Below, one piece after another: positions 8,641-42,116 of a stretch of DNA of 64,000 bases. Origin of the DNA: Mesotaenium endlicherianum (lineage: Eukaryota); NCBI GenBank assembly GCA_009602735.1, contig WELA01002297.1:514805-578804 (forward strand), written 5' to 3'. The first letter of the stretch is position 1. Each line of letters starts with the position of its first letter. The translations under genes and the position numbers were made by a program. A model generated the notes under the pieces. The model saw nothing but the letters and a program-made list of their open reading frames with translations, did not search any database and was not told the origin of the DNA.

Positions 8641-9015
8641 GTGGCCTTCAACTTGGTGATATCTATCCGACCTGCATTCTTTGCCCATTTGACAAAGGCA
8701 TGCTTCCCCTTAGAGAAGTAGTCTCTTCCTCTCCTCCTGTGCTCCTTGGTTTCCACATTCATGTTACTCAGGCATCCGTTAAGCTTGGGGTCCCAAGGAG
8801 CAATGTGAGGTGGCAGGATGAGATAGCCGTCCAGGCCATAGTGGAAGTCATTTGGGTGGGCGCGTTCACACTCCTGCTTCTTGTTTAGTGACGGTCATCC
8901 ACCTCCAGTCCGTGGGCTGCTGGTGATACCGTGAACCATGTTCAGTCTTTTTTAGCTTATAAGGGATCCAGTGGGGAGAGAACATCTGCTGCCCTGTTTC
9001 TCTAACCAAGTATTC

Positions 9016-10985: not shown

Positions 10986-13900
10986 TCACCCCCCCGATAG
11001 AAAAAGCGACGTCTCGGCGCGTCAAGTCAGGTCTTAGACATGTGGAGCAGACTAGTCAACAGCTGCCACATATGTGAAGAGGATTAGTCAAAGGCGCCAA
11101 GTCAGGTGCTACACATGTAAGGTAGACTAGGCAAGGTCGTGGGTGGTGTGACCTTATTGGCTAGCCTACTCCTTGATGATAAAGAAAATTGTACAAGTTG
11201 GCTAAGAATCTGCCACAAATTCAAGAACTAATAGCGTCCACAGCACTGCTTCATATCTAAAAATTCTAGTACCAAACGGACCGCGTCGGAGAACTCTATT
11301 GGGTCACCAATTTTGAGAGCATTCTAATTCCTGGAGTTTCGTTGAGAGATGAGAGGGTAGGCACTTCTCCAAATCTGTGCAGAAACTTTTGAAAATCATA
11401 AATTCTTCGACACTTCTCCAAATTTTGCAAAGTAAGTTTCAAAATGGGCGCTGTAAGATGTTCCACCAAAGTCTTGAGTTTCAAAGCATTCCAAGTTCAG
11501 GGGAGAGCACAATGTCAAAAAGCAAGTTCTGTCCAAATAATGCCAGTAGTCTGACCCCCTTCTACTTAGAGCATCATATTTCTCTTACCAGTGCTTCAAA
11601 TTGAGCGAACTTGGATTCTAAATGACCAACTACTCATCGACTAGAGGCACGTAAATTTTTAAATTTTATTATGAAGAGACCTTCCACCACTAGCAATTTT
11701 AGTTTTCTGTCCAGAATCTTCGAGAAGAGAAGAGTGTCTAATGTCAATATTTCCTCTTTCTTGTTCTTGTAGGCTGCCTCCAAGGGGTCTTTTGCTGCTT
11801 CTTGATGGTGGCAGGTTGCCTCCCTAAAGTCTTCATGCTTCTAGTAGAGAGACTTGAGGGTGGTTCCAGATGGGGGTCGGCGGCATGGAAGCATTTCAGC
11901 TTTTCCTGAACTTTGTCAAGGTAGTAGGCCGCCACCCAACTATTCTCTGAATCTAGATATCCTTTCTACTTGATCAAGTATTGCTGCTGTCTCCTAAAAT
12001 TTCTCATAGTCAATATGTCTTCTACTTCTTACTCCACATGATCATCCACTATTTTTGGGACTGGTGGGGTTGTCACTCGTCCTGGGAACTTGTTGTCGGG
12101 TTGCACATATGGCTTAAAGAGGTAAGCGTAGAATACGGGGTCGATGTGCATAGTTTGGGGAAGTTCTAGCTTGAAAGCAACGGGGTTGACTTGCTAGATT
12201 ATCTTGAAGGGTCCCAAATACTTGGGAGAGAACTTGCTGCCGGCAGGCCTATTGTTTAGAAAAATATTCTTGGATGATAGTAACACGTTGTCACCCACTC
12301 TGTACGTAATTTCTCTTCTGGACCTGTTTGCGACTCTTGCTTGATCATCTTGCGCCTGTTGTAGAGCTTTCTTCGCTGCTGTAAGGGCCGCTTCTAATGT
12401 CTCCATAAAATTTGTTGCTGCAGGTACTTCATCATGGCCAACCGTGAAGCTCAGCGGCGTGGTTGGATGGAAGCCATAGTTGAGGAAGAATGGGGACTCT
12501 TGGGTAGAGGCCTGCGTAGTGTTGTTGTATGCAAACTCCAAGGGGGTCAAGTACATGTCCCAGTCTTGCTCCAGAGTAGACACGTAGGCCTCTAGAGAGG
12601 TCTTTAGGGTACGATTCATACGCTCGATTTGCCCATCTGATCATGGGTGGTAGGCAGTAGACATACCCAGCGATGTACCCAAGTTCTTGAAGAGATTTTT
12701 CCAGAAATGGCTTGTGAATCTTGGATCTTTATTTGAAATATTTCTTGACGATAGTCCATGGAGTCGGAACATGTTTTCAAAGATGAGTCTTGCAAGTTGT
12801 GGTGCTGTAGCCTTAGTCGTCGTGGGAATAAAATGAGCCATCTTGGTAAGTCTGTCCACCACCGTGAGTATTGCATTATGGCCTCAAGGTGTCGCGGGCA
12901 GGTCCACAATAAGGTCCATTGAGATGTCCGTCCATTGTCTTTCGAGGATTGGTAGTGGTTGGAGGAGTCCTCCCGCCTTTTGCGATGATGGCTTGATTCT
13001 TTGGCATGTGTCACAGCTCCTGCAGTACTCCTTGACTTGCTTAGACATGCCTGGCCAACAATAAGTCCTCGCTAGCACGCCCGTGGTCTTTAGGATTCCA
13101 AAGTGTCCTCCCAGAGGGTTGTCGTGTGCTTCTCGTAGAAGCATGAGCTGGAGGTCTAAGTCATTAAAAACACATCTTTGGCCCGTTTTTTGCCTCACCC
13201 AATAGTTTCCTTCTTGCTTTTTGTGTGGGTCAAGGGCTGCCTCGCCATTCGCATATTAAGGGTCCGCATCATAGGCGGCAGAAAGTTGAGCTTCCAGATG
13301 TGTACTCAGGGATATCATCACTGCATTTAATTGCAGTCTTGAGAGGGGGTCAGCCGGGATTGCCTTGCCGGGCTGGTACTGAATCGTGATGTTGTACTGT
13401 TGCAAGTATTCACTCCATCTTGCTTATCTCCGTGGAAAATACGGGTGCGTCTGGAGGTGCTTCAACGCCTCGTGGTCCGTAGTGACTAGCACCTTGCGTC
13501 CTTCAACGTAGCAGCGCCAAGCCTTCAAGGCATGAATAATCGCCAATGCCTCTCGCTCCGTACTTGTATAATTTTGCTCGGCTGGATTTAGCTTCCTTGA
13601 CTCATAGGCAATGGACTGCAGTCCCTTGCCTTGGTCTTGAAGCAGGATTGCTCTTATTGCATAGGAAGATGCATCGGTGATGACATGGAAGGGCCAATCT
13701 GGGTTTGGACTTGGGAGTGTGAGCATCGGGGATGTCGTCAATCTTCGCTTTAACTCTTGGAATGCCTCTTCCTCTTTCTTGGTCCATGTATATAGCCTGT
13801 CCCTCTTGAGTAAATCTGTCAGGGGGGCTGCTATGTGCAAGAAGCTCTGGATGAATCTCCTGTACGAATTGGCAAATCCCAAGAATGATAGGAGTTCTTT

Positions 13901-16022
13901 CTTGATCGCGGGGGTTGGCCATTCCTCCACCACCGTGGTCTTCTTGGGGTCCATCTTGATGCCATCAGCAGTCACGTGAAGACCTAGGAACTCCACTTCT
14001 TGTTTGGCAAACTCGCACTTTGACTCCTTTGCAAATAGCTTATTTTGCTTCAGGATTTTGAGCACTTCTTTCACGTGTCTTCCATGCTCTCCAAGGGTCT
14101 TGCTGTACATGAGAATTTTGTCAATGAATACCACCACAGATCAGTTCAGCAGGGGCTGAAATATGGTGTTCATCATAGTCATGAAAGTTGCTGGTGTGTT
14201 GGTGAGTCCAAATGGTAAGACCATGAACTCAAAATGTCCATATCTTGTCCTGAATGCCGTCTTCTCTATGTCCGGTTCTGCGATGCGAATCTGGTGGTAG
14301 CCGCTCCGTAAGTCAATCTTCGTGAAGTACTTGGCTCCAACCAGCTGGTCCATTAGCTCATCCATACGCGGCAGCGGGTATCGATTCTTGATGATGATCT
14401 TGTTGAGAGCGCGATAGTCCACACTCATCCTCAAAGTACCGTCCTTCTTCTTAACAAATAGCACCGGGGCTCCAAATGGCGACTTGCTAGGTCAAGTGAA
14501 GCCGTGGTCCAGTAGCTCTCTGATTTGCTTCTTGACTTCGTCTAGCTCCATATATGACATCTTGACGTAGGCCGAGAGATGGGCTTGCTTCCGGGCTCCA
14601 ACTCTATCTTGTGGTCTACGACTCTCGTGGGGGGTAGGCCCTTGGGCAATTCCGGGGAGAACACTTCTTTGTAGTCCTCTAGGCCTTCTTGTATCTCCTT
14701 GAGAATGGGGCTGCCTTCTTGACTCTCGATGTCTTTCTTGATGTCTTTTGGCGTGATCAAGGCCAAAAGAAGCTCGTGTCCTTTACTCACAAGTCTCTTG
14801 AGTTGGAGGGCGGAAAATAGTATCTTGTGTGCCAGCTTTTTGATGTCTTGGATCTGGATGTTCTGGATTACGCGTAAAATACAGATTCTTGAAGTGATGT
14901 CATTCTTGATTTTGATAGTACCGGTCCTCCAATCAACTTGGGGGTTGTGCTTGGTCAACCAAGGCATCCCTAGGACGACGTCGTACTTGCCCAATTGCAT
15001 GGGGGAGAACACTACTCTATCCTTGAAGGACTTGATAGAGAGTGACAAGGGGTACGTCTTCTTGGAAGGGGTAGTATAAGAGAACCCATTGGGCATCATA
15101 ATCTCCTCGTCGTGGTCAAGGGTTTGCATAGTAATACCGTGCTTGGTGGCAAAATTTGCAGCAATGAAGTTGCCTTGTGCTCCGCTATCCACCAAGATGT
15201 GGACCTTCTCTCCTCCAAGGTAACCTCTCAAACTCATTGGGGCTGGAACGTCGTCTTCGACGGGGGTCTCCACCTCACTTGGTTTGTTGCCTTCTTGTAA
15301 AGTGGGTCTTGGGGTGGTAGGCTCCTGGCCTACCTGCGCTGTCCGTTTTTTGACAACTTTTTGGGGCATGAGAGTGCACGATGGCCCTTTTCCTTGTAAT
15401 AAAAGCATAGTCCAGCCGTCACGAGAGCTTCTTTTTCAACCGGGGAGAGTCTTGCTTTCACTCCTTGCTGGTTTCTTGCATCATAAGTGTCATTGGAAGG
15501 TCTTCCACTCTTTCGGGCAGCCGCGGGGTCCCTTTCAATAACTCCAATTTCCATGGGTGTGGGTCCAGATTTGGATGTGGAAGGGGCTGCGTACACCCGA
15601 GTCGCCGATACCCATGAAGATGAAGGCACGGAGTGCTTGAAATCCAAGGTATCCACCTTTTGGGCCACTTCAATGATCTTTGAGAAGTCCGTCAAGTCGC
15701 GTAATTCCACTTCCTTTGCCACCTTGGGCTTGAGGCCAAAGATGTGGCGGTCAATCTTCTCCTTGAGAGACATGTTGGGGATCTCGAGAGTGAGGACGTG
15801 AAATCTGGATGTATATTCTTGAACGGACGTCATTTGCTTGAGATGGTAGAGCTTTCCTCAGACAATCTTCTCCGCATTGATGGGCATGAATTGCCTCTTG
15901 AGGGCCTCACGAAAATCTGCCCATCTTGCATATGATGGTGGGGGCTCTTGGCCGAGCATGGGGTGCGCCATAGCTTGATATATAGCCACTTGATANACTT
16001 GATAGTTATGCCACCATGATGT
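10485..16022 (-). mobile_element. C1: degenerate copy of chromovirus family C, 5' part missing
   Basis: Highly similar and collinear with intact C2 42117-47660, with stops and frameshifts. Interrupted in gag by D1. Confidence 0.93.
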
Positions 16023-16159
16023 TGTCGTGCGTTACGAGGTCAAGTGCGCACCATAGGCATAAGCAACACATCATAGGCAAGCAGGCTTTGCTGCACTGGA
16101 GTCTATAATACATGTGGCGTTATAGATCGAAAAGGGAGTCAAGTCGAAAATGTTTTAAT
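16023..16159 (-). repeat. D1 repeat B2 (element 3' terminus)
   Basis: Direct repeat of 16953-17088 with a few substitutions. Confidence 0.92.
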
Positions 16160-16950
16160 TAAGGGAAGTGTACTCTCCAGAGTGAGCACCTCAAGACTGT
16201 AATCTGGTGGGAAAACAACTAATGAAGTATGACCCAGAGGATCACTGGAAGAACATCATGATCTTCAGAGAAGTCCTATGGCAAGGGCTTAAGCTGTGAC
16301 TTTGCTCACCACTTGTGAAGTTCTTCAAGTGACTGGAAGCCTGGAGGGCTTGCTCTTCACAAGAGAGTAACTAAGTGGTCCTGAAAACACAAGGGATAAA
16401 AGTGTAAGCTTTACTGATAATCTCTGTTACTTACACCTGGCATAATGGACTTCTAAAAGATGTCTCTTCTAGGGACATCTCTACTAGCGCCTCAAAAGTG
16501 GATATGGAAATTGAGGAAGCTTCCTCTAGGAGTAGGTGATGCAGTCACCAAGTTATAGCCTCAATGATGCACATATACTATGGAAATGCAAAGTTTATGT
16601 AGGCTAAGGGGCTCGCGGATTTGTGCGCACAAAGCTTGGGGTCACGAAGAGCCAACAATGTCACCTTTGGGGACATTGAGTCACAAATTGGGCCTTGGGA
16701 AAGTTTCGTTAGGGACCGGTAGGTGACGCGGACTAGATCGCACCTATCTCGCTCGATACTTGACCAGATGACGCGAAATTGGTGCCATTCGGAAGATGCT
16801 TCGACGCGCTACACGTTGGTGACTTGAAAATCTAGAAAAGGTCAACATACGGATGCGTAAAGTCAATGCAAAGTTGGCCTTCCTAGGTTGATGTTTCGCA
16901 CATGTGGAGCTTGGTTTTATACGACAAACTCGACTCAATAAATCATGACA
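16160..16950 (-). repeat. D1 repeat A2 (791 bp), begins TGTCATGA on the element strand
   Basis: 16160-16452 matches 27568-27860. Confidence 0.88.
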
Positions 16951-16952
16951 GT

Positions 16953-17088
16953 TGTCGTGCGTTATGAGGTCGAGTGCGCACCATAGGCATAAGCAACACA
17001 TCATAGGCAAGCAGGCTTTGCTGCACTGGAGTCTATAATACATGTGGCGTTATAGCCAAAATGGGAGTCAAGTCAAAAATGTTTAAAT
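16953..17088 (-). repeat. D1 repeat B1, immediately after a G9 polypurine tract (17089-17097)
   Basis: Matches B2. Ends GCACGACA, then a 2-nt spacer AC, then the TG of A2. Confidence 0.92.
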
Positions 17089-17102
17089 CCCCCCCCCAGC
17101 TC

Positions 17103-20100
17103 TCAGCCTCTAGCTGATGGGCTGTGTACGCTGCCTAAGGCTAGCTCAGTGCAGTCTCCGCAGAACCAGTCTCCAGCTGGCACGCGGGCCAGCGGCGGAT
17201 CGAGGCAGCCGATGTGGAAGCCGAGGTTGCAGCTGTCGCAGAGCAGCATCTTGGCCTCCTGGCCAGTGCTGTGACAGATCTGGCACGCCCAGTCCTTGGG
17301 CCGCCGCGCGTCGCTAGGACAGACCTGCAAGTCAAGGTTAGGAAGGTGGCACGGCCCACAGTTCTTCGTGTGGTCCTTGTGAAGAGGGCCATCTGCGCCT
17401 ACCAGCTCCAGGACTCCTGACGCCAAGGCACGCTTGACGCGAAGGATGACCGGCGAGCTGCTGGTGTCGAGGGTGTTCTTCGTCTGGCGTCGCAGGTACA
17501 CGAAGTCACCTGCGGAAAACTGCAACACCCGCGGATGATAGGCTCCTCCACAAGTCATGGCGTACCTCAGCGTGTCGCGATGCTGTGCGATGCTGAGGTT
17601 ATCCATGGCCATGGGCATCAGGCGCCGAAAGAGCTGAGCACGCTGCCTGATAAGAGCACTCCATGTCTCGGGACTGTCCAAGTCCAAGACGTTCTCGGCC
17701 ACAGTCTTGGCTGCTGCTGGCAAATGGGCTGTCGGCCGAAGAGAAGGAAGTAGGGAGAGTGCGAAGCCAAGGAGGCCTGCTTACTGAACCTGTACCCCAT
17801 TGCTAGCCAAGGGAGGGCGTCGTCCCAGTGGGTACGGTCGTGGGCAAGGCAGTACTTCCGCAACCCTAGCTTGACGGTCTGCACCATGCGCTCGGCGAGG
17901 CCGTCAGCCTGAGGATGATCGCCGGAGGTGGTGCGGTGGTCAATCATAGAGCGCTCCAGCAGCTTCTAAAAGCTGCCCTGGAACTCCTTGCCCTGGTCGG
18001 TCAGCACCTCAGCGCAGCCGCCAAAACGGCTAAGGACCTGATTGAGGAAGGCCTGAGCGATCCCCTCACTGGCCTTGCTGGGCAGGGGCACGAGTTCGAT
18101 CCACTTGGACATGTGCTCAATCATCACCAAGACGTAGAGGTTGCCCTGGCGAGACTTGGGCAGCTCTCCAGCCAAGTCAAGCGACCACCTGTAGAACAGC
18201 CCCTGAATAGGAAGGGGGCTGAGGGCAACGATGCGCGCTGGGAAGCTCGAGTGCACACTGTCGCAGAGAGTGCAGCTGCTGACGACAGCGGCGACAACCT
18301 TAGTCATGCCGTGCCACCAGTACTCGGCCTGAAGAAGACTGAGGGTGCGCTTGACACCGAAGTGCCCGAAGGACTCATGCACTCGACGCACCTGCTGCCT
18401 GCGTATGGCAGGCTCAGGGACCACCAGGACGGAGCCGTCTGCCATCACGCGCCGCACGCGCCCCTCCATGAAAATGAAGTCGGGGCTGCGCCTGAGGATG
18501 CGGTTGCGCTCGCGTGCGCTGACATCAGGTGCCAACTCCTTGGCCGTGACGTACTGCAGCACTGGGGCGTCGTCCCATACGTCCTCGGGACCGCGCTGCC
18601 AGCTGTCCTGATCCTCTGCCGCTGCCAGGGCCAATCGCCGTGTGGTGACGGTCACCATGTCCAGGCTAGTGAGCCTTGCGGGCCGCACATCGCCGTCCAC
18701 GGTAAAGGCTCGGAAGGCCGCCGCATGCCAGGCCACCGGCTCATCCTCATCGTGGCGGGCCACATTGAGATCCCTCGAGGAGGGCAGCGGGTTACGGCTG
18801 AGACCGTCAGCGTCCAGGTTGGTTGAGCCTGGGCGGTGGTGCACGTCAAAGGTGTACTCCTGCAAGATAAGCGCCCACCGTGCGTACTTGCCGGTCAAGC
18901 GCTCCGATGTCATGAGCCACTTAAGTGGCTGGTGGTCGGTGACTAGGCGGAAGTGCGTGCCGTAGAGATAGTGCCTGAAGTGCACGATCGCCCAGACTGC
19001 TGCCAGGCACTCCCCCTCGTAGGAGCCGTAGTTGCCTTCCGCGCGGTTGTTGCTGCAACTGGCGTAGGCCACCACATGCTCGAAGCCGTCATGCTCTTGC
19101 ACCAGCACAGCGCCCAGCCCTGCCTGCGACCAATTGGTGTGGAGGATGAAGGGCTTCGCATAGTCCGGACGCCAAAGCACAGGAGCGCTCACCAGCAGCT
19201 CCTTGAGCTTATCAAATGCCGCCTGCTGCTCTGGTCCCCACTCGTAGGCAACGCCCTTGCGGAGCAAGTCGTTGAGCGGCTTGGCTAGCTCGCTGAACCC
19301 TGGCACGAAGCGGCGGTAGTATTTGGCCATGCTGAGGAAGGCCCGCAGCTGCGAGAGATCTGTAGGAGGTGGGATGCCTGTGATGGCCGAGATCTTTGCC
19401 AGCTGGGGTGCCAAGCCGCTGGAGAAGAGCAGGTGGCCAAGGTACTCCACCTCGCGGGTCCCAAAAGTGCACTTGCCTGGATGGCACTTGAGCCCAGCGG
19501 CCTCCAAGCGGTCTAGGACAGTAGTGATGTGCGCCACGTGCTCCTCAAACGTTTGACTAAAGACGAGCACGTCATCGATGTAGCATCGGGCGAAGGATAG
19601 CCCAGCCAACTCCTTGTCCATCACCCTCTGAAAGGTAGCTGGCGCATTCTTCAACCCAAACGGCATCACCACCCACTCGTAGAGCCGCTGTGCTCCCCAG
19701 AACGCCGTCTTATGCTAGTCCTCCTCGGCGATGGGAATTTGGTTGAAGCCCTGACGCAGATCCAGCACTGAGAACCAAGTGCACGTGCCAATGTCGTCAA
19801 AGATCTCGTCAGGCGTCGGCATAGGATATCTGTCCTGCTCGGTGACCTCGTTCAGTCTACGATAGTCACCGCACATTCTTTTCTTGGACCAGTTGCCCGA
19901 GGCATCCTTCTTGGCTGGCATGACTGTGGGTGCGGCATAGCAAGAGGAGGACTCTCAAATGAGCCGGCTGTCCTCCAGCTTGCTTGTCTGCGCGTTGATC
20001 AAGTCATCCTCGAAGTGGCTGTAGCGATAACGCTTCAGAAAAATGGGCTCCTGCGACGTGAGAGTAATCCGCATGGGGTCATCCCTGTAGCGCCCTAGAT
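17103..20100 (-). pseudogene. D1 pol: RT-RNaseH-integrase-PHD finger (disrupted)
   Basis: MCGDYRRLN, VMPFGLKNAPATFQR, YIDD, HHCC (HESFGHFG...CTLC), WSLDLAG/LTDQG/GLAERMV, and C4HC3 PHD CQICHS...LLCDSCNLGFHIGCLDPPL...WFCGDC. Confidence 0.93.
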
Positions 20101-20689
20101 CGTGCATGCCGCTGGCAAAGCTGGTGCTGCGCCTCCCGTCCAGCAGTGCCGTCAACTGTGCAGCCTGCGCCTTGGTGAGTGTCCCCCCTAGCTTCCATGC
20201 CGGTGGAGCTGGTGGCGTCGCCTGACCTGCAGCTGGAGTCTCTTGTCTTGCCGTTGGGGTAGACTGTGGTGCTGCAGGTGTCACCTGCCCTGCAGCGGTT
20301 GGCGCTCGGCCTGCCGCGGGTACCTGCACTGTGGCAGCTGCGGCCAGCTGCCTGGCACTGTCTGCCTGCGAGCAACCATCTGCCTGCGAGCGAGGAAAAA
20401 GAAAAAGTGACCGGGACTCTCTGGCTCGCTGTGAGGACTCCTCTCACCGCCGTCCCCCCCCCAGCAAACCAGATTCCTCCCTGCGCGGCGGTGGGGAGGG
20501 GGGGCGGGTTCGCGCTGGCGGTGCAGGCCTTGCGCGCTGAGGATGCCACGTCGTACCGGGCGGGGCTTGATTGTCATTGTCGGTGGAGTCATTGTCCATA
20601 TCATCGGCAAGCCGAGGCAGCTCGGGATGCCGGGCTGCGGCGTAGAGAGGCGCCAAGGCCTGCGTCTGCAGCAGGAATCCACGGGAGGA

Positions 20690-21620
20690 CGTTGGCGTCG
20701 ATCGCCTGCCCCAAGAGGCGAATGCGGTTCACCTCAATGAGACCATCCACCTGTGTGAGATGCGGCGGGAAGCCCATGGCACGCTCCATCTCCGCAGGAC
20801 GCGGCCTGTCAAACATGCCAGTTTCCAGGTCGATGACCATCCCGCGCTGATCTCCAACGAAGGCGTCGCTGTCGTAACGGCTGACAAAAGTTGGCAGCGC
20901 GCGAGTGACGTCATGCAGGACCTCACACTGTGCCATGGGGGGATGTGGTAGTGCAGTCACGCGCTGGGCCAGACGAGGGGCATCGAGGATGGAGTCGACG
21001 GTGCGTGGGTGACGTGGATGAGAGGCGGCCAACGCCTCGAGAGTACCTGGCATTGCCAGGTTCGTGAAGTAGGCGCGGACGCGGTGCACGAAGGAACCAA
21101 TCTGGGCAGCGTCGATGACGGCCTCGCGGCCGACGTAGCAACTGCAAAGAGCGAAGTTGGCGCTAACATTGGGTCGACGATCGTGGCGCGCGGCCACGTT
21201 CTCCAGGACTCGAGTGTATGTGGCGGCTGTCGATCCTCAACAATGTTGAGGACGCGGAGCAAGTGCCAGAAGAGGGCCGTGCGGGGATTGCCGAGCGCCC
21301 TGCCACGCCCGGCTCTGGAGAAGCCCTGGCACTCCCAACCGGCGATGACGAGGTCTATGGACCCAAGTTGGGTGACATGCTCGACTGTGATGTCGCGGAT
21401 GTCCATGGGCCAGTCTGTCTGAGCGCGGTAGAATGCGTGCGCAAGAAGGAGGTCAGGGAATCGCTCGTGGCCCAACGCCATCTGCCGACGGGCCACTTGC
21501 TGGGCCTGAGGATCGAGATCGACGTAGACGTAGCGGCGTACCGGGATGCCGGCTTGTAAGGCCGCGAGCAACCCGGTGGCGATGTCGGCGAAGAGCTCGA
21601 CGAGGACGATGCCGCCGGGC
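20690..21620 (-). pseudogene. D1 DNMT3-like C5 cytosine methyltransferase domain (one frameshift near 21210)
   Basis: VLVELFADIATGLL (I), YVYVD (II), DIRDI (III), IDLVIAGWECQGFSRAG (IV), ENV (VI), HRVRAYFTNL (VIII), EMERAMGFPPHLT...RIRLLGQAID (IX/X), in canonical order. Confidence 0.92.
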
Positions 21621-23164
21621 CGCTCGTCTAGAGCGTCTGCGCAGATAGGAGTCGGAAGTGGGCGACACCCCATTGCAGGGGTGCCGGGCTGAGCGGGCGG
21701 CGGGAAGGTATGCTCGGCGCTGTGCTGATGTGGCGCCATGCGGAGGGCGGCCACAGCACGGTCTGCATAGTCACGCATAAGGCTGGGGATGCGGTCAGTG
21801 AGCGGCTGCGGACGCTCCTCCCGTGCGTGGTCCTGGTAGGTGCGCCACCGCAGGCGCGCATCCTGCAGGGCTGTCGGAGAGACAGCGCGGGCTTGACGTC
21901 GGGCCGAGGCCACGCACAGCTGCTGCCACCTGTCGCGCTGGGCGCGGTCAGTCTGGTGCGAGGCCACGTGGGCCAGCTGGTTGAGAACGGGACGTGGAGT
22001 CAAGTAGGGGTGCGGGCCGAAGTAGGCTCGCTGGCGTGCGCGCATGTCTGCAGAGGGGACTGTGCAGACGGAGCGCTCGGAGCTGTCGACCTCCTGCGGG
22101 GACCAAACTAACCAGCGAGGGGCCAGCTGGACTCGCGGCCGGGGCTGCCCTCGTGGGACGGGCGCGTCTCGGGGCTGCCGGAGACTAGACATGAGCCGTG
22201 TGCGTGCGGCGGCCGTGAATGGGTGACGACTGGGCGGCCTGCTGTCGGTGCGGGCCACCTTGGGAGGAGGTGACCCGGAGGGACCGTCGCCAGCGATGTG
22301 GCTGCTGGCGCGCGGAGCGGTAGGGGCCAGCATCACGAAATGCGCCTCGGAAGAAGACTAAGCGTCGGCGCCAGCTGAGAGGGACCGGAAGGGCGGAGTG
22401 CGGCGTCGGTCTCAAGTGTCGTTGTACGACGGCGTGTCCCCGCGGACCCGCGTGTCGTCGTAAGGAGGTGTGCGGTCCCTCTCGTCGTAGGGCGGCGTGA
22501 TGGAGCGGGCTCGCGTCTCGCGGAGGGGAGTCACCTTTTGCGTCTCGCAAAGGGGTGTGAGCTATTGGGAGCGGCTCGTCTCGCGGAGAGGAGTGGTCGC
22601 TCGAGCGGGTCCGATGGTCGGCCAAGTGCGATGTGCGTAGGTCAGATGGGCGCAGATAGACGGGGTCGTGCGGATTGGCTCGCGGACGCTGAGCCTGGGC
22701 GCTAGCTGCTGTATGGAGTGTGTGCCAGCGCTAGAGGAGGCCGCGGCAGCCCGGCTCGTCGCAAACAAATGCGCGATGCTGCGACACTCGTGGCTCGTCG
22801 AGCAGTCGAGTGACATTGGTCGGCTGGGTCCAGCGGCATCGGTACGAGCCCTGCTGGGCCAGTCGTGAGTCATGGGCTGGCTGGGTGCGCTGAAGCCGGG
22901 CGGACCAGTAGGTGCGCGTTGCCTGCGTGCTATAGGCGCAGCTGGCGGGGGCTCCTCTGGTGGCGCCGCGCTGAGCGCCTCGACGGATGTCTCTGGCAGT
23001 TGCTCCCACTGTGTCTCCTCCTCACTCTTGAGGGACTGGTCGTCGGATCTGCCAGGATAAGGTGCCTGCCGCATGGCCTCGTCCTCGGATGCCGTGGTGC
23101 GAGGCCAGGTCTCGCCGGACTGATGCAAGGCGTCATGAGGGGGCGGCTGAGATTCCATACTGTA

Positions 23165-24316
23165 CTAAATGGCCACACCAACAGGCACGTCGTGGCGAAC
23201 GCGGATTTTGGTCCTTGCGGACGGCTCGCCGCGAGAGGCCAAGACCCCTTGATGAGCCGTAGGCGCTGCGGCCGCATTTCGAGCAAGGGCGGCGGCAGCG
23301 ATGGCTGTGCTAGCCGTGGCGAGGGCCTCAGTGGCATCGTCCGCCATCTGCCGCATCATCGCGCTGTGGGCAGTGCAGATGCGGATCTGCTCCCTGGCCT
23401 GGGCTGCCAGGACATCCGCCTGCTGCTGCGGCGTGAGGTGGAGCTCGGCACTAGGTAGGTCCGGTTCCTCGTCTTGTGGCTCGAGCAAGTCCACCCCCAC
23501 AGAGATCTCCTCGTCCTTGGGCCCGTCCTTATTGGTCTTGACCACTAGCCGGCCATCGTTCAGCCCCATGAAGCCATAAAGAGCGGACACTGCTGGGCGG
23601 CGATCGACAATGTCAAGGGGCAAGGATGCGGTGCGCGTCCCCCCTATCCTCCAGTCGGGACAATGGAAGACGCGCTCTGCCCAGTTGTCGACCGCGGCGC
23701 CAATGGGAAAGAGTACGTCCTGCCCTAGGAGCACATCGAAGGACTTGGAAGGAGTGACGAGTGCGTGCCGGTGGATGGTTGTCTCGTCTGCCGTGCCTGG
23801 GCGCAGAGTGAACAGTAGCGCCAACCTTGTGCAGCCGGCGACGGTCTCGGACGTGTCGGCGGCGGTGTTAATGCGCGTCGGAGAGTCCTCCAAGTCGGCG
23901 GAAGAGAGTCCCAGCTGCCGGAAGTAGCGGAGGCTGATGAGAACCGGCTGCGCGCTTGTGTCGAACATGATGCGCTGCGGCGCCTGGGTGTTGACGAGCA
24001 CGATCCTCTGCGAATTATCCAGAAACGCGGCTTTAGGAGTGTTGATCATCCTGCGCTCCTGCGCAGGGCGCGCGGGCGCGGATCGCACCGCGGTGGCGGC
24101 ATCGATGGTCGGCCTCGTGGCTGCGGTGCGTAGCGTGGCTCTGCGCGACTGGAGCATCCGCTGAGCGGCCTGCCTCGTTGCCTCCATGGAGACGCCGAAC
24201 TCTGCGAAGGAGACCGTCGGCATGCGGTGCAGTGCGAGAGAGATGACCTCCGCGCTGAGCTGCACCGTCGTCATAGGTGAAGCGAGCGCATGTGGCGTCA
24301 GCTTTGTTGAGGTCAT
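23165..24316 (-). CDS. D1 aspartic protease region
   Basis: IMFDTSAQPVLI ... FDVLLGQDVL; homologous to D2 LLDTGAQLII ... YDVLLGTEAL. Confidence 0.8.
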   Translation of the reverse strand: MTSTKLTPHALASPMTTVQLSAEVISLALHRMPTVSFAEFGVSMEATRQAAQRMLQSRRATLRTAATRPTIDAATAVRSAPARPAQERRMINTPKAAFLDNSQRIVLVNTQAPQRIMFDTSAQPVLISLRYFRQLGLSSADLEDSPTRINTAADTSETVAGCTRLALLFTLRPGTADETTIHRHALVTPSKSFDVLLGQDVLFPIGAAVDNWAERVFHCPDWRIGGTRTASLPLDIVDRRPAVSALYGFMGLNDGRLVVKTNKDGPKDEEISVGVDLLEPQDEEPDLPSAELHLTPQQQADVLAAQAREQIRICTAHSAMMRQMADDATEALATASTAIAAAALARNAAAAPTAHQGVLASRGEPSARTKIRVRHDVPVGVAI

Positions 24317-24627
24317 GGAGGGCTCTAGGATGCGGAAGGAACGGGGCAGCCGCGGTGCCTCCTCCGTCCGGCGTCCCTGGTCTGGCCCGGCGCGCTTCTG
24401 CGGAACAACGGGCTAACCGGCCGGTGCTACGAGCGTGTTCTCACGGCTCGCGCGCCCGACTGCGGAGCGGCTGCCGAGTGGCTGTGCGTGTGCGCAGCAG
24501 GCCAAAAAGGCCGCTGCTGGCGCAGCCGGCAAACCTGCCGCGCATTCTGCCGCGGGGCCTGTTGCAGCGCCGTGCGCGCAGCTTGCCGCGAGGCCTGCCG
24601 CGGGGCCCGTTGCGAGATCTGCCGCCG

Positions 24628-26439: not shown

Positions 26440-27519
26440 GATCTGCAGGTGGCTGGCCTTGCCACAATAGGTGCAGTCGCCAGGCTTGCCATTCTGCGCA
26501 AGAGTGCACTTTTGGCGTGAGTGGCCCGTCTTCCCGCAGGACCAGCAGGGATCGCTCGTAGTGGCAGCCATGAAAACGCGGCCATGCATAGCTCCTCGCT
26601 GCTGTGTCTGCTGGGGCAGCTGAGAGCGCTGAGGCTGCTGCTGCTACGACTGGGGCTGGCGGGCAGGCGTCGTGCGCGTCGTAGAAGACGGCAGCACTGA
26701 GGCCTCCTGGCGCACGCCCGTAGATGCTAAGCCCACACGATCGCTAATGTTGCTCCGTGCGGCGGCCAAGCTCTGTTTCTCAACCGAGAGGTAGGCCTGC
26801 TTCAGAGAATACTCTGAATCGTGGCGGTCGATGAGGGGGACTACAGCCCTCTCCATCAGACGCGGCTCGACGGCGCGCAAGAAGATCTCCGCGGCCTCCC
26901 GGTCAGTGACAGTTTCGACATCGCGGCGGAGGTGCACCAAGCGGCGGTACATCATGCGAATAGTCTCGTTCTTGCGACGGAAGAAATGGTGCAGCTCGTA
27001 CACCTTCTCTTCAGTTGCAGCCTGGAACTCTGTCTTCAGGATGTTCCAGAAGGCTTGCACTGGATCAGCTAGCAGGGTCGCCAGTGGTGGGTCACCCACA
27101 AGCTCAGTGCGGGTCCGAAGCTCGGCCTCCTTCTCACGGAAGGTGTCGCGGGCCTCGTGCGAGAGGTAGCGCATAAGCGTGTCAAAGACGTTGCGCTTAG
27201 TCAGCGTGGGTGTCTTGAGCTTTGCAGCCGCGAAGTCAGCCTGAAACTCCGAGATTGTATCTTCCAGATCACAGGTGCCTGGCCTACCGCTGAAGCGGTA
27301 GGCAGACCTGTCAGTCTTGACCTCGTGGTCACCTGCCATGGGATACCAGAAATCGTAGTGAGCCCACTGGGGAGATGGCTCAGAAGCAACTGCCGTGTGC
27401 TGGAGAGCAGGTTGCTCTTCTTCGGCGGGTTTAGTGATAGTGCTGAGATCCGAGTCTAAGTCTTCTCCACCAACCCCTTTGTAGTATGGCTGATAAGAAA
27501 GCCCACTACGGGTAGGCAT
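26440..27519 (-). pseudogene. D1 gag (in-frame TAG at 26644-26646) with two zinc knuckles
   Basis: ORFs 26644-27519 and 24427-26589 are in the same frame. Knuckles CWSCGKTGHSRQKC and CTYCGKASHLQIVC. Confidence 0.85.
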
Positions 27520-27548: not shown

Positions 27549-27568
27549 AAGAGAGATCTTTTAGAAGT
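27549..27568 (-). promoter_or_regulatory. Putative self-priming PBS of D1
   Basis: ACTTCTAAAAGATCTCTCTT directly after A1 is complementary at 19/20 positions to repeat-A segment 16449-16468. No TGG-initiated tRNA PBS is present. Confidence 0.6.
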
Positions 27569-27860
27569 AAGGGAAGTGTACTCTCCAGAGTGAGCACCTC
27601 AAGACTGTAATCTGGTAGGAAAACAACTAATGAAGTATGGCCCAAAAGATCACAGGAAGCACATCACGATCTTCAGAGTAGTCCAATGGCAAGGGCTTAA
27701 GCTGTGACTTTGCTCACCACTTGTGAAGTTCTTCAAGAGACTGGAAGCCTGGAGGGCTTGCTCTTCACAAGAGAGTAACTAAGTGGTCCTGAAAACACAA
27801 GAGATAAAAGTGTAAGCTTTACTGATAATCTCTGTTACTTACACCTGGCATAATGGACTT
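27568..27860 (-). repeat. D1 repeat A1 (5'-truncated)
   Basis: Matches 16160-16452. Ends exactly where A2 meets B2, 48 nt before the gag ATG. Confidence 0.92.
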
Positions 27861-29354
27861 ACACCTGGCAAATCAAGAGGTCATCCCAATTGTCTTATTT
27901 TTCGTTAATGCATGCTCTCAGCACTTCTTGCAGAAGTCGATTAGGTCTCTCAGTCTGCCCATCAATGTGAGGGTGGTTTGCTATGCTGAGCAGCTGTTTG
28001 ACTCCCACTAACTCCATTAAAGCTCTCCTAAAATTGGAAGTAAATTTTGAGTCTCTGTCCGAGATGATGTTAGATGGCAATTCTAGGTAGTGTTACCACC
28101 CAGTCTATGGGTATTGTTTCCCATCGTCTAGCTGGGATTGGTAGTGGTTGTAATAGCCCCCCAGGTGGTGTGTGTCTTGACTTGTTTTTCTAACACTGAT
28201 CACAAGCGTCAACATATTTCAAGACCTCCTGAGGCAACCCTTCCCTGTGTTAATGTTTGGTCAAGTTTGCCAACAGTTTTGGCCTGCCCCAAGTGTCCAC
28301 CCAATAAACTGTCATGTGCTTGACTCAGTAAAAGTGAACTTATTTCCAAGTTATTAGGAACTACCTGCTTCAGCCTGCCTGAAGTGATTTCAAGTACCCA
28401 GACTCCTCCCTTTGGCTTATACCCGAGTGCATTAGCAGGACACGCACCACCAGTTTGGCTGGGCTTGAAATGATGGGTCAGAAAGGTAGGCTTTCCTAAG
28501 ATGTTCAAGGAAGGACTTTTTCAACTATAGAGAAGTGAGTGCACAAAGAACCTTCTTAACCGCGATCTGATCAAAGCTCCATTTTTGCAGATCACGTCTT
28601 CTAAAGAGAGCATCAGCAGGATTCAACTGCCCTGGTTCGTAGTCAATCTGGACTTGGAATTGCTCCAGCATCTGGCTCTAGCGGTTCTCCTTCCTCGACA
28701 GCTTGGACTTCTTCCGAAAATGGGTTAGAGCTAGATAATCTGTTATCACCTTAAAAGCATATTACCATGTAGCTATGCTCTCCACTGTTTGAGCTCATGA
28801 ATGATAGCCAACAGCTCTTTATCATGCACAAAGTAATTGATCTCAGCTAGATTCATCTTCATAGACTCAACCAGCACAGGGTGCCACTCCTGCTTTACCT
28901 TACCATCCTTTGTGGTTTTGTCAACAAGCTGCAACAAAATAGCACCTATGGCAAAGTGAGAAGCAAAAGTAACCACCTGCACAAGTTTGCTGGGGTCATA
29001 CACAGCTAGGACTGGGGCAAAACAATGAGCACATTTAACGGTCTGGAAGGCAGCGTGCTGCTCTTCCCCCCACATACCCTATTTCCTTAGTGAGATCAGT
29101 TAGTTCACTGGCCTTTATAGAATAATTCTCAACAAATCTCCTATAGTAGTTAGCCAATCCCAAGAAGGATCTAATTTTCGAGTCAGATTGTGGTACTGGC
29201 CACTCCCTTATGGTCTTGACTTTCTTAGGATCCACAATAATGCCTTTCTTACTGACAATGTGGCCTAAGAATTCAATATTCTCCTTAAAAAAATCACAAT
29301 TGCTCATTTTGGCATATAATTGATTCTTTCTTAGAGTGTATATTATTATCTTCA

Positions 29355-35625: not shown

Positions 35626-36572
35626 TGTCGCGACTGCTATCCACTTGACAGTGCCGCACGCGCAACGCAAGTCACGGCCGTCCAGGTACGGAAAGTCAGC
35701 GTTGACGCACCAACCAAAAGACTGAGTTATCTCAGTCGGCGGTTATGTCAAAGTCGTTATCACTGTCAAAGTGGTCACGACACGTCAAACCCCATACCCA
35801 GGGATGTTGCAGAGGCGTTGCGTGCCACCTCGGTTAAGAGCCTCGAGTGACTAGCCACAGCTTGAGCGTTCATCTCAAACGCTGCCAGCCGCCAGCCACA
35901 TAGGCGTGATTGCCAGCTGAAACACTAAGCAGTCACGTGCGACAATCACAAGGCGTGCATGCATGCTGAGTGACAACTTCTAAAGTTGTTTGAGGGCTGT
36001 TAGGTAAGGACGGCATGCAAGCTAGGCGCTGTGACTAAGCACTGGCATTCTTGAGAGAGGATAATGTGTGGTGCCTGCAAAAGGCACTAATCTTGCCTGA
36101 AGCTGTCTCATTCTTGCTTGCATTATTGTCAAGGAAGCTGAAGGAGCAGGTACAGAAGAAAAGGAGAAGAAGGAGCGCAAAGAAGAAGGAGTTCCCAAGG
36201 CCACAGAAGAGCCGAGACGCCACGCTTCTGCCGATGCGGGAAGCTTTCTTCTCAATGTATCATAGAAAGGTCAGACCTCAGAAATTTCCAAGAGAGGATC
36301 TCGCTGGTAGAAAGTAGAGAGCTGCAAAATAGAATTTGTCAGGAGATTAGCACAGATTCGGGTCAAACGCCACAAGCGTGCGAAAGTCACTTAAAACAAT
36401 GAGTGCTGTGTTAGTTTCCAAGTTCTCAGAAGTCTCAATTGTCGAATTGCTGATAGCAAGAGTAGCATTAACAAGTAAAGCTCTTAGTGAAGAATTGAGT
36501 GAGCCTAGCCAAGCAATGAAGAATTGTTAAGGCGCGATGTTGAGCGAAGAGCTCAGACCAGGCCAGCATAGA
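35626..36572 (+). repeat. D2 repeat A1 (3' part and gag N-terminus apparently deleted)
   Basis: Matches 51329-~52398 except for a segment of about 125 bp that is missing. Confidence 0.92.
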
Positions 36573-36699
36573 GTTACATACATGTGACATGAGAGCATCT
36601 CGACATGTAACCCTCTTGCTAAGCACGCCAACACTGTTGAAACAGCTGAGGGCTGTTGAAATTGCAAGAAATCAGGACATTAGAAGAGAGATTGTCCGT

Positions 36700-37821
36700 A
36701 CCCGGATGCTAAGCAACTATCTGCGAGCAAGGCGCAGATATGCGCACATTGCAACAAGAAGGGGCACTCAGAAGATGAGTGCTGGTCTAAGAACCCAGAT
36801 TTAAAGCCGCCACGGGCAAATGCTGGCACGAAAGAGGCAGACAAGGAGAAAAAGAAAGAAAAGGGTGGCTCTGGTAACCGCAAGGGTAACCAGAAGTATG
36901 ACGCTATGAGTGCAAAAATCACTGAGTTGAAAGCTCAATCTGCGAAACTAAATGTGCCTAATGTCCACTATGATGCAGATGTTGCAGAAAAGACCGTCTG
37001 CAAAGGCGAGAAACTGATGCCTGAAAAGGCTGTGGGTGCAACGGCTGCCGAGCGAGCAGATCACGACTGTCTGGTGCCAAGGAATGCTGGGAAGTTTCCT
37101 CAGACTTTCCAGATTATTCTGGATGAAGATGAGATCTCGCAACTGCGACAAGCCAAGGCTGGGACGCGTAAGACATTTAGTTTTTCGCTGGAGAAGCTGA
37201 AGGCCCTGGTGGAACATCGGATCCAGCATGCTCCTTCGCTTTCTCTTGTTGATTTGCATATCACATACCTGTTCACGATTGAAAAAGTTGGACATATAGC
37301 TGAGGAGGGTGCGAACAGCGCTCATTGCCGACCAACTTCAGCACCGTGAGAGTGCAAAATAGGGATGGTGTACTAATATTCAACAATTGGGCAGCACCAA
37401 CATTCTGTTGGATACGGGCGCACAGCTAATCATCCTGGGAAAGCGAGCTGTGAAAGCTCTAGGATGGACAGCAAGGGACCTGAAAGAGAGTTCTTTCCAG
37501 TTAAGAACTGCCTCAAGGCAAGTCTCAAAGTCTTGTGGGATTACTCACAAGCCTGTGAAAATTACAGTAAATTCAGGAAAACCTAAAGAGGCGTCACTAC
37601 TCATGGAGTGCACAGTGACAGAGGCAGAGAACTATGATGTTCTCTTGGGAACAGAAGCGCTGATTCCCTTGGGTATGGTCATTGATTTGCAGAAGCCAGA
37701 ATCCTACGATAACATCATGAAGCGCGACGAGGAAAGCTATACGAGCATCAACATGCCAACACCCTTGGTATGGCAACCTCGGATTATGGAGCAACTCGAA
37801 ACTGTGAGTAACAGTGACTGA
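36700..37821 (+). pseudogene. D2 gag C-terminus and protease
   Basis: Knuckle CAHCNKKGHSEDEC at about 36741-36782; LLDTGAQ in ORF 37387-37821. Confidence 0.8.
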
Positions 37822-37939
37822 GGCTCACAAGAGCTGCTGCCAGTACCCTACCCAGTTACCTCTGCTGCAAACCTGATGCCTGGAGTCGAGCCGCTGCCGC
37901 AAGGCACATTGTCAGGATGGGAGATCCTTTTCGCAAAAA

Positions 37940-38915
37940 GGGACTAGCGGTGTTGGAATTGTTTGCCGAACTTGGGTCTGGGACCATAGCATTGATCCAA
38001 CGAGGGATACAGGTGGCCAAAGTCCTGTATGTGGACAATGATAACCACGCTTTTCTAGCATTCAGAGAAGTCATGAGTCAGATGCTGAAAGGGGCAGACC
38101 TTACAGATGCAGCAAATGCATCACTTTGAGGGGTTGGTGTCCGCATACACCAATGTTGAGCGCATCGCTGGAGGCAACATTATTAATGTGAAGCCTGAAG
38201 CCCTGTATAGCTATAGGATTGACTGGATCTTTGCTGGATTTCCTTGTCAACCGTTCTCTCAAGCTGGGAACAGGAGGGGATTCAGTGATCCACGAGCACA
38301 ACACTGGAGATGGATGGTGATAATCATCAGCATGCTGCGGGAACGTCAGCACTATCACCCACCAATGTTTGTGATTGAGAACGTGCATCCAGGAATGGAT
38401 TACCAGCAGATGAAGCCGAGAGAGCCATGACTGATTCTCGACTCCACCTTGGGTCATCATGTGCTAATCAACGACGCCAAGCACGGAGGATTATCCCATA
38501 GGGCTAGAATATTTTGGATAAACGGCATGTCTATTGAGGTCCTGAGAGAGATGGAGGACCTTACGCGGCGATCACCGACGGCATTGACAGTGGAAGAGGC
38601 GCTGGCGGTACGTACCACGCCAGTGACCAGGAGGGATTCCTACCACAGTGCGTCATCAATGAACCAGGTCAGCCAAGGGCAGTACTGCCTACCTTTACAG
38701 CGTATCCAGGATCCCAAGCCTTCATAGGAGGAAGACCAGGAATGGTCAAAGACATGCATGAAAGAGACGCCGTTTGGAGAGAGCCTACTGCGGTGGAGAA
38801 GGGAAACTGCCTTGGAATATCTGACACCATAGCTTGGCAGATAGTCGGTGTTGTAGGGTCAGATGAAGCTGCAAAGATTTTCGGCAACATGATTGGACAG
38901 TACTCTATGACTTGG
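37940..38915 (+). pseudogene. D2 C5 cytosine methyltransferase domain (frameshifted)
   Basis: VLELFAELGSG (I), LYVD (II), IDWIFAGFPCQPFSQAG (IV), FVIENV (VI), HRARIFW (VIII), REPTAVEK...IFGN (IX/X). Confidence 0.9.
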
Positions 38916-41299
38916 CTGGTGGAGACAATCATGACGTGGCAGCAGTTGACCTTCACCGACAAGCCTATGCCGAGGCCAAGACCAGTGACAATTGGGGTCA
39001 ATGTGGTGCCAACATCTGACCAGAGGGCTATCAGGAACGCACATCAGCAACAAGAAGAATACGGTGTGCGAAGAGACGCAGCGGCAGCTGCCAGAGACAG
39101 AGCATTCAGGGAAGCTGAAGTAGTTGAACTGATGAGATGCCAGGATCTGTTGGACCAGATTGATAATCGGACCGCTGAATTACAAGCACCTCTGGAAAGA
39201 GAGGATACACCTTATGAGAGACCAGGCGCTTGAGCAGACGACGCCGTTGCCAAGCGCAGCAGACGATATGCAGAACACCCCGTCATCCTTGAGAAACGCC
39301 ACTCGCAGTTTGATATTTGGGAGTCCCTCTCCCGAAGCCACGACATCAAGGCGTGAGAAGACTTCAAAATATGCCAGATCAGGGTATGATACCAACCTCA
39401 GCCCAAGAGCAACTGGACGCGGAAACTACTGGCAGGACAGCTCAAGTAGCTGGGAAGCTAACCAAAAGTGTCTATCGTCTTCACCAGAGCAAGTACCGTT
39501 ACAAGATATGTCAGAGGAGTCTGAGAAGAAGACCCCTGGGCCAACACCTGAAGATTTTGAATACTATCTAAAACCAAGCACCAGTGCAAGAACGCCGGTG
39601 CAATATTGGTGAAGGGCCAAGATGGGCGTCTGAAGAGTACCTGAGTAGGACCCCTGAAGAGTCCTATAATACCTGCAGAGCATCCGTCGGAGAACGCAAT
39701 ATTGGTGAATGGGCTGAAGAGAGTAGCCAGAATTCATGAGATTTTGGAGGGTCTGCAAAGACCATATGCCTCAAAGTGATATTCGAAGAACGCAAAGAGG
39801 AGTCGGGCAAGCAATTGTCCACAACACCTTCTTTGATGAGCCTAGAGCCGCAGGCTAAGGGGCAACAGCAGGGTTCAGCCAGTCAGACAGCTGAATCCAT
39901 TGCAAGGCAGATCTTGGAGCAGCTACTGGAAGCAGACGCTCGACGGCACAAGGAAGAGGAAGTAGCTAAGGCGGCAAGCACTCTGCAATAAGCCATCGTC
40001 AACCTGGCGAAGCTCAACACAGATAATGATGGAGAGCCACCACCACCTGCAGTGGAGAAGTCAGTTGAAGATGAAGCAAAGATGCCAGATCTTCCAAAGT
40101 TTGACCTGCCGTCAGTCACCAATGAAGAGGAGATTCGGGAAGAAATTCCACGATTTCCTACCCCAGAGCTGGACTTGTTGGAGCTACAAGAGCTCAGGAT
40201 GGATGACTGGGTGGCCGACCACTTGATAATGGAGGGGCCCAGCCTGGCAGATCTATACAACAATCTGAGGTCGCCTACATCCAGCACTCCTATTCCCAGT
40301 TTTCCACCAGAAGCTACTCCACATCAACTACAACAGCCGCAGGAAGTGGCTGGCTGCACCGCTAAGATGGAACCAACACAAGGTAATCCTCACGGTTGCG
40401 CAGGCAGACAAAGAAAGGTGGCCCGGGAAGGGAATGCACCTTTCAGGCGGATGCTAATGCGTTATCTCAGGTATAGGGGAGCAGCTCAGAGAGAAGGGGT
40501 TCCGAAAGGAACCATGGCTCCTCCTCCGCAACCTATCCTGGAGATTTTGCAAAGAGAGGGAGAGGATGGCTCGATTCGCGAAGCTATGGCATTGGGAATT
40601 TGCATTCCCATGGTGCGCCCTTCATCCACTGGAACGTGGGAGAAGGATAGCTCAGCTCCTAGGACACCCGCAACTTCTGAAAGGGAACTAGTAGAGCTGG
40701 GAAGTACCAAAAGCCGCTTGACAGCAGAGAATGCTGTATACGCACAACTAGCTGCGGCTCAAATACCGCAAACTTTGACACAAGCATGGGCGGTTACGCC
40801 ACCAGCCAGGGAGGAGTTTGGCACAACCGTTGCGCACATTGCTACCATTGAGCGCGAGTGGGGTTGGACAATCGACCCCAGAGCAGATCCAGCAGAGTGG
40901 CCTTTGCCGAACCCGCCCCCACCACGTGAAGAGGGAGGAACGGGGACCAGCTTGACTACAGCAGATGAAGAAAGGTTCTTCAGGCAGCCCGTCCGGAGGC
41001 GTCTGACATACTCCACTCAACGGGAGAGGCGACGATCCATAGGAAAAGGTAAAAGGCTTAAGAAGCAGGCCGCCGAGCTTAAGTCAGCGGAGGAGCAAGC
41101 TGCGAAGCCTACCACTCCACCGCCTAACAATCAGGCAGAAAAACCTGAAGGTCAGGATGAGGGCAAAAAGCCCCCACCTGAATCCAAAGAGTAGCAACTA
41201 CTGGAAGCCTGTGTTGGGGAAAAGCAGCCAGCAACTGAGATTTTCACTATTGGAAAAATGGTCTCAGCCCAACAGAGAGCACAAATAGAAAGGCTGCTG

Positions 41300-42116
41300 A
41301 AGAAGCACCGCAAGGTGTTTGCTTTCACCAAGGAGGAGATTGGTAGAACCAGTGCCAGTGTGTGTGAGATCACACTAAGTACTGATAACCCAGTTAGACT
41401 TGGGCCGCATAAGCTCAGTTAGACCGAATGGGACTGTGTGGAGAAAACTTGCCAGGAGCTGCACAAGCTCGGCATGATTGAGAAATCAACATCAGTACAT
41501 GGAGCTTCCAGAGTAGTAGTTGCCAAGAAGGACGAGGCTGGCAATTATACAGCCACTCGTATGTGTGGAGACTACGGGCGACTGAATCTCCACACGGAGC
41601 CAGACAGCTACGTGATGCCTACACCAGAGTGGATCTTTGCGATTGCCACCACCGGGAAGGTGTTCAGCATCATCGATCTATGCCAAGGCTTGAACCAGAT
41701 CCCTGTGAAAATAGAAGATTGTATTAAGACCGCTTTCTGGACTCAAAGGGAACTTTGGCAATGGACGATAGTGCCGTTTGGGCTGAAATGCCCCAGCCAT
41801 ATTTCAGAAGACTATGTATAAAGTGCTGGAGGGGCTGACTTTTGCAAATCCATACATTGATGACATAGTGGTGTTCAGCAAGTCCATAGAGGAGCACCTT
41901 GAGCACTTGGAACAAGTGTTCCAGCGCCTGGAGAAATTCCAGATAACGCTGCATCCTGGAAAATGCAGATTCTTTGAGGCACATGGGCCTTACTTAAGAT
42001 ATAGAATTGGGAACAATGCTATGTCCCCACAGCCAGTAAAGGCTGAGGCCATTTACAAGAAACCTGCACCTGCAAATGTGTCCAAGTTGAAAGCTCTATT
42101 AGGGCTGAGCGGATAC
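41300..42116 (+). pseudogene. D2 reverse transcriptase, 5' part
   Basis: RMCGDYGRLN, IIDLCQGLNQIPV, PFGLK, PYIDDIVVFS; cut at LSGY by C2. Confidence 0.9.

Follow-up and report, generated by a model that had tools for sequence, protein, structure and literature searches.

A predicted self-priming site in a split-repeat Ty3/gypsy element with an internal DNA methyltransferase

The window analyzed here, a stretch of DNA of 64,000 nucleotides, contains an element, designated D1, that raises the question of how its reverse transcription is primed. D1 is a Ty3/gypsy element on the minus strand with the order gag-PR-DNMT-RT-RH-IN-PHD in broken frames, and its repeats are arranged as A1-internal-G9-B1-A2-B2. 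The site that follows the A repeat starts with ACTT and not with TGG, and judged on this start D1 does not belong to the tRNA-primed Ty3/gypsy elements. Our data indicate that the D1 group very likely self-primes its reverse transcription, all versions of such a mechanism being taken together. Sequence comparisons and the analogy with Tf1 further suggest that the site is probably the primer-binding site (PBS) of a split-repeat Ty3/gypsy element that primes in cis with the first 12–13 bases of its own RNA and uses no tRNA. The features of D1 are the following.

27568..27860, minus strand: A1, the left repeat in truncated form, of which only the predicted R-U5 part is left; it breaks off at 27860 with a 14-nt duplication and is fused there to another gypsy element
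27556..27568, minus strand: putative core PBS, ACTTCTAAAAGAT; 27568 is the last base of A and the remaining 12 nt lie outside A, the A/B junction of other copies being at 27568
27549..27554, minus strand: six extra complementary bases past the mismatch at 27555, probably outside the primer duplex given the TATA spacing
26644..27519, minus strand: gag, with its ATG at 27519, 36 nt past the core PBS; tblastn matches in 13 related loci
17103..24412, minus strand: broken pol (protease, C5 DNA methyltransferase, RT, RNase H, DDE integrase, PHD finger)
17089..17097, minus strand: G9 polypurine tract, the predicted plus-strand primer; G runs occupy the equivalent place in relatives
16953..17088, minus strand: B1, first part of the true LTR, directly 3′ of the purine tract
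16951..16952, minus strand: the two bases that separate CA from TG in the internal CA-ac-TG junction, where B1 meets A2
16160..16950, minus strand: A2, the full-length A repeat with its TG start at 16950; it lacks, at 16483/16485, a TATA-bearing segment present in other copies
16462..16468, minus strand: the mismatch and the six bases that lengthen the complement, likely immediately upstream of +1
16449..16461, minus strand: predicted self-primer, ATCTTTTAGAAGT, read in A2; 16461 is the equivalent of the predicted +1, with the family TATA 31 nt upstream
16023..16159, minus strand: B2, with GCACGACA as its natural right terminus, beyond which lies the gag region of the gypsy element that D1 was inserted into

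Scans of eight D1 open reading frames (ORFs) gave rve and H2C2 matches for the integrase and no match to a tyrosine recombinase. The C5 methyltransferase is located between the protease and RT (PF00145, E 4e-8), the PHD finger is confined to the terminal ORF, and no chromodomain follows the integrase. When the gag protein alone was used as the query, no homologue was found among proteins of 160–510 aa.

The sequence at the B1/A2 junction is CACGACA-ac-TGTCATG, and the same GCACGACA terminates B2. In run X1, eighteen contigs depart from D1 at 16950 with diverse flanks (loose ends were also observed at 16483 and 16485), which indicates that the element naturally begins on the left with the TG at 16950 and that the full A repeat extends from 16950 to 16160; the A1 of D1 is therefore truncated. 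The A/B junction of other copies lies exactly at 27568/16160 (6 contigs of X1 and 5 reads of X23), and in a second family, designated M, the junction likewise places the LTR end at the end of A. The proposal of an earlier, sequence-only reading that the true LTR ends where A ends is thus confirmed. D1 itself is dead, as the promoter and the primer are gone from A1 and pol is broken. The A1 break (27857–27874), which carries the 14-nt duplication, coincides with the inner end of the predicted primer, the point at which the strong-stop DNA is expected to end. It can be explained by a 4-nt microhomology, and cDNA-templated repair is a possible alternative.

A repeat search returned the pair on which the self-priming proposal is based, a 20-nt inverted pair formed by 27568–27549 (ACTTCTAAAAGATCTCTCTT) and 16468–16449 (AAGAGACATCTTTTAGAAGT), both read on the minus strand, with 95% complementarity (19/20). 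The sole mismatch, 27555/16462, separates a perfect 13-nt part that adjoins the end of A (27556–27568 with 16449–16461) from six more pairs. The upstream arm stops 289 nt short of the end of A, and its orientation is fit for priming. Both the 19/20 complementarity and the suitable polarity had been claimed from the letters alone, and both were reproduced. No second match to the 20-mer with up to 4 mismatches occurs elsewhere in the 64-kb window on either strand. When the downstream arm was anchored 0–5 nt after A and the 930-nt LTR was subjected to 1500 dinucleotide shuffles, the anchored complementarity score of D1 was 16 while the best shuffle reached 12, so that D1 exceeded 1500 of 1500. 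Element E, a tRNA-type element of the same window with a TGGTATC that we take to be a Met-tRNA primer site, gave a self-complement of only 7 nt when tested alike. ARAGORN found no tRNA within the 64-kb window, and Rfam searches over 15900–17300 yielded three matches, all at chance level, with neither a ribozyme nor a tRNA among them.

The pairing in D1 was taken from A2 because its own A1, cut at 27860, retains just the final 4 nt of the upstream arm, which agrees with the earlier statement that the pairing is read from A2. Other genomic copies run on from the A block into the upstream arm, as seen from the loose ends that all 4 runs show at 27860. Some of the D1-family records span the PBS and A and others span A and the arm, with none of those listed spanning all three. 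Two length variants occur in the family, an extra A in the primer run (12 of 24 X24 reads and 2 X1 contigs) and an extra T in the PBS run (14 X1 contigs), and the two are unphased with each other.

A second related element in the window, D2 (35626–52934, plus strand), has a D1-like layout with TG..CA ends and a CATC duplication. The final ~190 nt of its A1 are gone, together with the PBS and the greater part of gag, so the deletion of the equivalent D2 region noted earlier is real, and no complement of at least 11 nt was found between A2 and the 240 nt after the A1 break. An ordinary gypsy element with LTRs that are 98.8% identical and a TGGTATC site is nested in D2 (42115–48796), and a truncated sister copy of it (10485–16024) is the insertion target of D1. 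A third, decayed D1 relative without repeats lies at ~4365–9760, with 70–77% DNA identity in part of pol; its upstream repeat is lost. A glycosyl transferase group 1 fragment lies amid repeats at 55527–56222.

Relatives were collected with an alignment of 54 integrase-bearing sequences as the query, which gave 80 metagenome loci, the best 80 of at least 270 confirmed. Most of these 80 do not cover the priming region, and those that could be used consisted of family M and 7 other contigs. Three scans of viral contigs returned no clade member (none; 21 loci, all of other kinds; none). In the 7 contigs outside family M (non-moss-type), the CA-nn-TG junction, A and the internal sequence are contiguous; the contigs are probably collapsed assemblies, and their LTR end is therefore not independently fixed. 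A perfect stem of 14–16 nt is present in five of the seven (L034, L080, L090, L097 and L098), and in each case only 0–1 of 300 shuffles reached it. L045, which has no TATA, is borderline with a 12-nt stem (15/300 shuffles). L042 failed the strict test (170/300), its best stem being 14 bp with 2 G-U pairs directly before the next ORF.

Family M contributed 11 matches in which A1 is followed by internal sequence, 10 of them distinct (L088 and L089 are the same). Its arm, AGTTTTTCTAGAATT, has a perfect match after A1 in L044 and L064, so that the 15-nt stem is present on single molecules (0/300 shuffles for each), and L088 reached 1/300 in the strict test. The strict shuffle test was not significant for L056 and L038, and L048 has no stem of 9. 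Eight of the 10 distinct copies show 1–4 mismatches in 15, as counted by eye, and A1 and A2 differ by 8–20% in those mismatch-bearing copies that have both.

Integrase identity divides the positive loci into five groups, D1, family M, L034, L080 with L090 (71%), and L097 with L098 (90%), and identity between the groups is 46–59%. The A repeat of D1 could be aligned to none of the 9 loci tried. The seven 13-mers taken from the upstream arms differ pairwise at 3–10 positions, with variation in 11 of 13 columns, and each pairs with its own site. Even between L097 and L098, at 90% integrase identity, 3 of 13 positions differ and both stems are still perfect. The helix has a mean pair probability of 0.58–1.00 in the predicted folds of eight natural leaders, and neither D1 nor family M has a TGG-type site after the LTR. 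Covarying complementarity in related families, which the sequence-only reading had proposed as a check, was therefore found, as four other families each carry their own perfect complement of 14–16 nt. By these comparisons the complementary feature is real and conserved across relatives. The presence of a self-complement at the position of a tRNA primer site, together with the different matches of distant relatives, each to its own site, suggests that this clade likely copies from the tip of its own RNA.

If the RNA primes itself, then the position of its 5′ end determines the length of the primer. A TATA-like box precedes the predicted +1 by 32, 32, 29, 29, 31 and 31 nt in six of eight loci and is absent from L080 and L045. 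In five of the six, including family M, L090, L097 and L098, the predicted +1 coincides with the start of the stem, and in L034 it lies 3 nt inside the stem. The TATA is missing from the A2 of D1 and is present in other copies (loose ends at 16483 in X23, X24 and X5); the distance from the first T of this D1-family TATA is 31 nt to 16461 and 24 nt to 16468. In D1 and family M, whose LTR ends are known from independent evidence, the number of paired bases beyond the LTR end is exactly 12 in each case when counting begins at the predicted +1. The primer is therefore likely to measure 12 nt, or 13 nt if the cDNA end retains one of its bases. A predicted primer of 12–13 nt that starts at 16461, rather than one of 20 nt from 16468, is thus likely; the Tf1 primer is 11 nt. 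The proposal that transcription starts near the arm and that the RNA self-primes has therefore gained support from the relatives and from a TATA at ~30 nt, while the start at 16468 with a 20-nt primer has not, since the TATA spacing favors 16461.

The RNA reads (X23 and X24) show no start at 16461, though the TATA spacing fits a 5′ end of the Tf1/sushi type. The only clustered RNA ends are those of 11 molecules at 16432 in X24, 29 nt downstream of the predicted +1. First-mate depth on the plus strand in X24 is 13–19 at 16467–16574 and 62–110 at 16170–16412, an approximately fivefold rise downstream of the arm, to be read with the facts that the D1 deletion at 16483/16485 clips reads and that poly(A) libraries are 3′-biased. 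X23 shows no depth step, and its reads leave the PBS-gag part uncovered. The RNA reads also include a variant in which a deletion (16383–16484) takes out the primer segment (2 in X23 and 8 in X24). A hairpin predicted at 16441–16490 (−11.7 kcal/mol, 50 nt) would involve some of the primer bases only if the RNA begins further upstream, and it could mask the 3′ copy of the primer.

By analogy with Tf1, transcription would start at the 16461-equivalent position in A1, and the RNA 5′ end, AUCUUUUAGAAG(U), would pair with the site over a loop of ~290 nt. RNase H would then cut behind base 12 or 13, and RT would extend the new 3′ end into A. The repeat layout suggests that the growing strand may transfer to the matching part of A2 and that the G tract would prime the plus strand, yielding linear B.A-internal-B.A DNA. 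The ends of this DNA would be joined, which would create the A/B junction, and integrase would act at the internal CA-nn-TG site, cutting there and inserting the element with a 4-bp duplication.

Several other readings of the same helix were weighed. A start at the 16468-equivalent position, with a 20-nt primer that contains one mismatch, would gain six further pairs (a duplex of −22.5 compared with −14.5 kcal/mol), and the stem of L034 likewise extends 3 nt upstream of its predicted +1. We consider this start unlikely, because it would leave the TATA only 24 nt upstream compared with 29–32 nt in relatives, because family M, L090, L097 and L098 have stems that start right at the +1 predicted from the TATA, and because one variant of the upstream arm, recovered apart from its PBS partner, differs in the distal bases. 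The helix might also be real and serve packaging, translation control or circle closure, in the manner of the internal complementary region of DIRS elements, with priming elsewhere. The DIRS-like layout of the repeats fits such a role, and pairing alone does not demonstrate priming. The three-duplex pretzel that Tf1 needs was not found either, as 18 coarse tests with 15-nt windows on 9 elements gave a best result of 21/300 shuffles for the side helices. A non-priming role is nevertheless quite improbable, since the helix stops at the LTR boundary with its 3′ end directed into A, a TGG-type site is absent there in D1 and family M, and the A/B junction holds at most 1 base of the site.

The same sequence could instead prime from the other end, through the A2 copy at the 3′ end of the RNA, or in trans from the 5′ end of a second packaged RNA. 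The arm is contained in both A copies, and cis and trans are the same at the level of sequence. RNA reads continue through A into B (5 reads in X23) and depth peaks downstream of the arm in X24, so that the RNA apparently does not end at the arm; in read-through RNA, the arm is also predicted to be partly hidden by the local hairpin. These observations make this version very unlikely. Priming by a host tRNA or tRNA fragment, with the complement in A arising by chance, has a precedent in the half-tRNA priming described for plant copia lineages in the relevant part of PMC6317226. It is hard to reconcile with the shuffle tests, with the match of each family's own LTR to its different site, and with the lack of a TGG start in any of the sites, and we regard it as extremely improbable. 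Self-priming in cis by the first 12–13 bases is therefore the reading that we retain.

The retained reading is connected to the way in which these elements integrate. Seven loci of family M show the split layout in full. Both ends are present in six: five begin with TG and one with TA, all six end with CA, and the 4-bp duplication is perfect in four and differs at one position in the other two; A/B junctions within the family differ by a few bases. A GACA-nn-TGTC junction between B and A is conserved in D1 (16951–16952), D2 (35626–52934), family M and 11 further loci (L023, L033, L034, L042, L045, L077, L080, L083, L090, L097 and L098). Together with the TG..CA ends and the 4-bp duplications, this junction points to DDE integration from a circle, and its novelty arguably exceeds that of the priming signal. 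We slightly favor the broader proposal that a widespread PHD-bearing, non-chromovirus gypsy clade has independently acquired a minimal form of self-priming (12–13 nt, no pretzel) within an undescribed cycle, in which the linear cDNA ends would not be integrase substrates, would be joined to give a two-LTR circle, and would be followed by DDE integration from the internal CA-nn-TG.

If self-priming is correct, then this would be an additional lineage that uses a known mechanism, and it would supply the absent priming step for split-repeat Gypsy elements, the layout of which appears without a mechanism in a 2018 figure legend (PMC5890265). Since the primer signal would set the cDNA end, the genomic ends (TG..CA) and the cDNA ends would be at different places. 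Such a separation is what a circle intermediate with a DDE integrase chiefly predicts, and the proposed circle cycle is thereby made testable. The signal also offers a simple annotation rule for elements whose bounds LTR finders would likely set incorrectly.

The split layout of D1 has counterparts among known systems. The repeat order matches that of DIRS-type elements (A-coding-B-A-B). DIRS-type elements use a tyrosine recombinase, whereas D1 has an rve integrase and its relatives have TG..CA ends with 4-bp duplications; identity of D1 as a DIRS element is ruled out by the DDE integrase and the duplications. KnitGypsy-Dnmt3 of Klebsormidium nitens combines a DIRS-type repeat layout with Gypsy domains and a DNMT according to the legend of Figure 4c in PMC5890265, and it shares with D1, as far as that description goes, a C5 methyltransferase inside the Gypsy pol and a DIRS-like repeat order. 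Section 9 of that paper, and a text search of three of its supplement files, give no primer site or priming mechanism. Passages of PMC8557442 and bioRxiv 2026.05.21.726589 contain nothing on priming in the clade of D1. Self-priming in a split-repeat gypsy clade is unreported in the literature that we found; subscription papers were mostly beyond the search, and an earlier mention is possible.

Self-priming itself has been demonstrated for Tf1 and proposed for Tj1 and other Tf1/sushi elements, as the priming passages of PMC4600332 and bioRxiv 2022.12.06.519325 describe, and according to the part of PMC6317226 concerned, predictions in plants extend it to 12% of LTR elements, in Tcn1 and TAR. 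The TAR lineage of Ty1/copia (Houba, Osr-1) is, like D1, a case outside Tf1/sushi in which self-priming is predicted in that part of PMC6317226. TAR differs from D1 in being of the copia superfamily with ordinary LTRs, and its predicted self-priming suggests that the mechanism arose more than once.

The closest functional likeness is to the Tf1/sushi group (Tf1, Tf2, Tj1, Tosmo and the plant Tcn1 clade). D1 shares with it a Ty3/gypsy pol, the absence of a tRNA site and, going by the relevant portions of PMC4600332, PMC6317226 and bioRxiv 2022.12.06.519325, complementarity of the site directly after the 5′ LTR to a short segment with which the RNA is predicted to begin. D1 also encodes an RNase H domain, which might release such a primer by cleavage. 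The predicted primer of D1 (12–13 nt) is close to but longer than that of Tf1 (11 nt). D1 differs in having a PHD finger instead of a chromodomain, in its split repeats, and in an LTR that ends with CCCTTA and not with CA before the site. A quick RT-RH tree of 68 rows, containing no Tf1 or Tcn1 reference row and leaving out L064, L052, L080 and L090 (short or missing matches), separated the 38-row clade to which D1 belongs (SH-aLRT 99) from a group of 8 rows that includes chromodomain-bearing elements (also 99). Three PHD-bearing gypsy proteins with a match to an adenine-methylase family (P0085, P0088 and P0093; PF05869) branch just outside the clade. REM1 of Chlamydomonas and Gypsy-7a_cRei, which carry a PHD finger and are active in laboratory strains, are possible kin. 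In summary, D1 is Tf1-like in its predicted working, yet the PHD finger, the lack of CA before the site and the separate clade in the quick tree indicate that it is not a member of Tf1/sushi.
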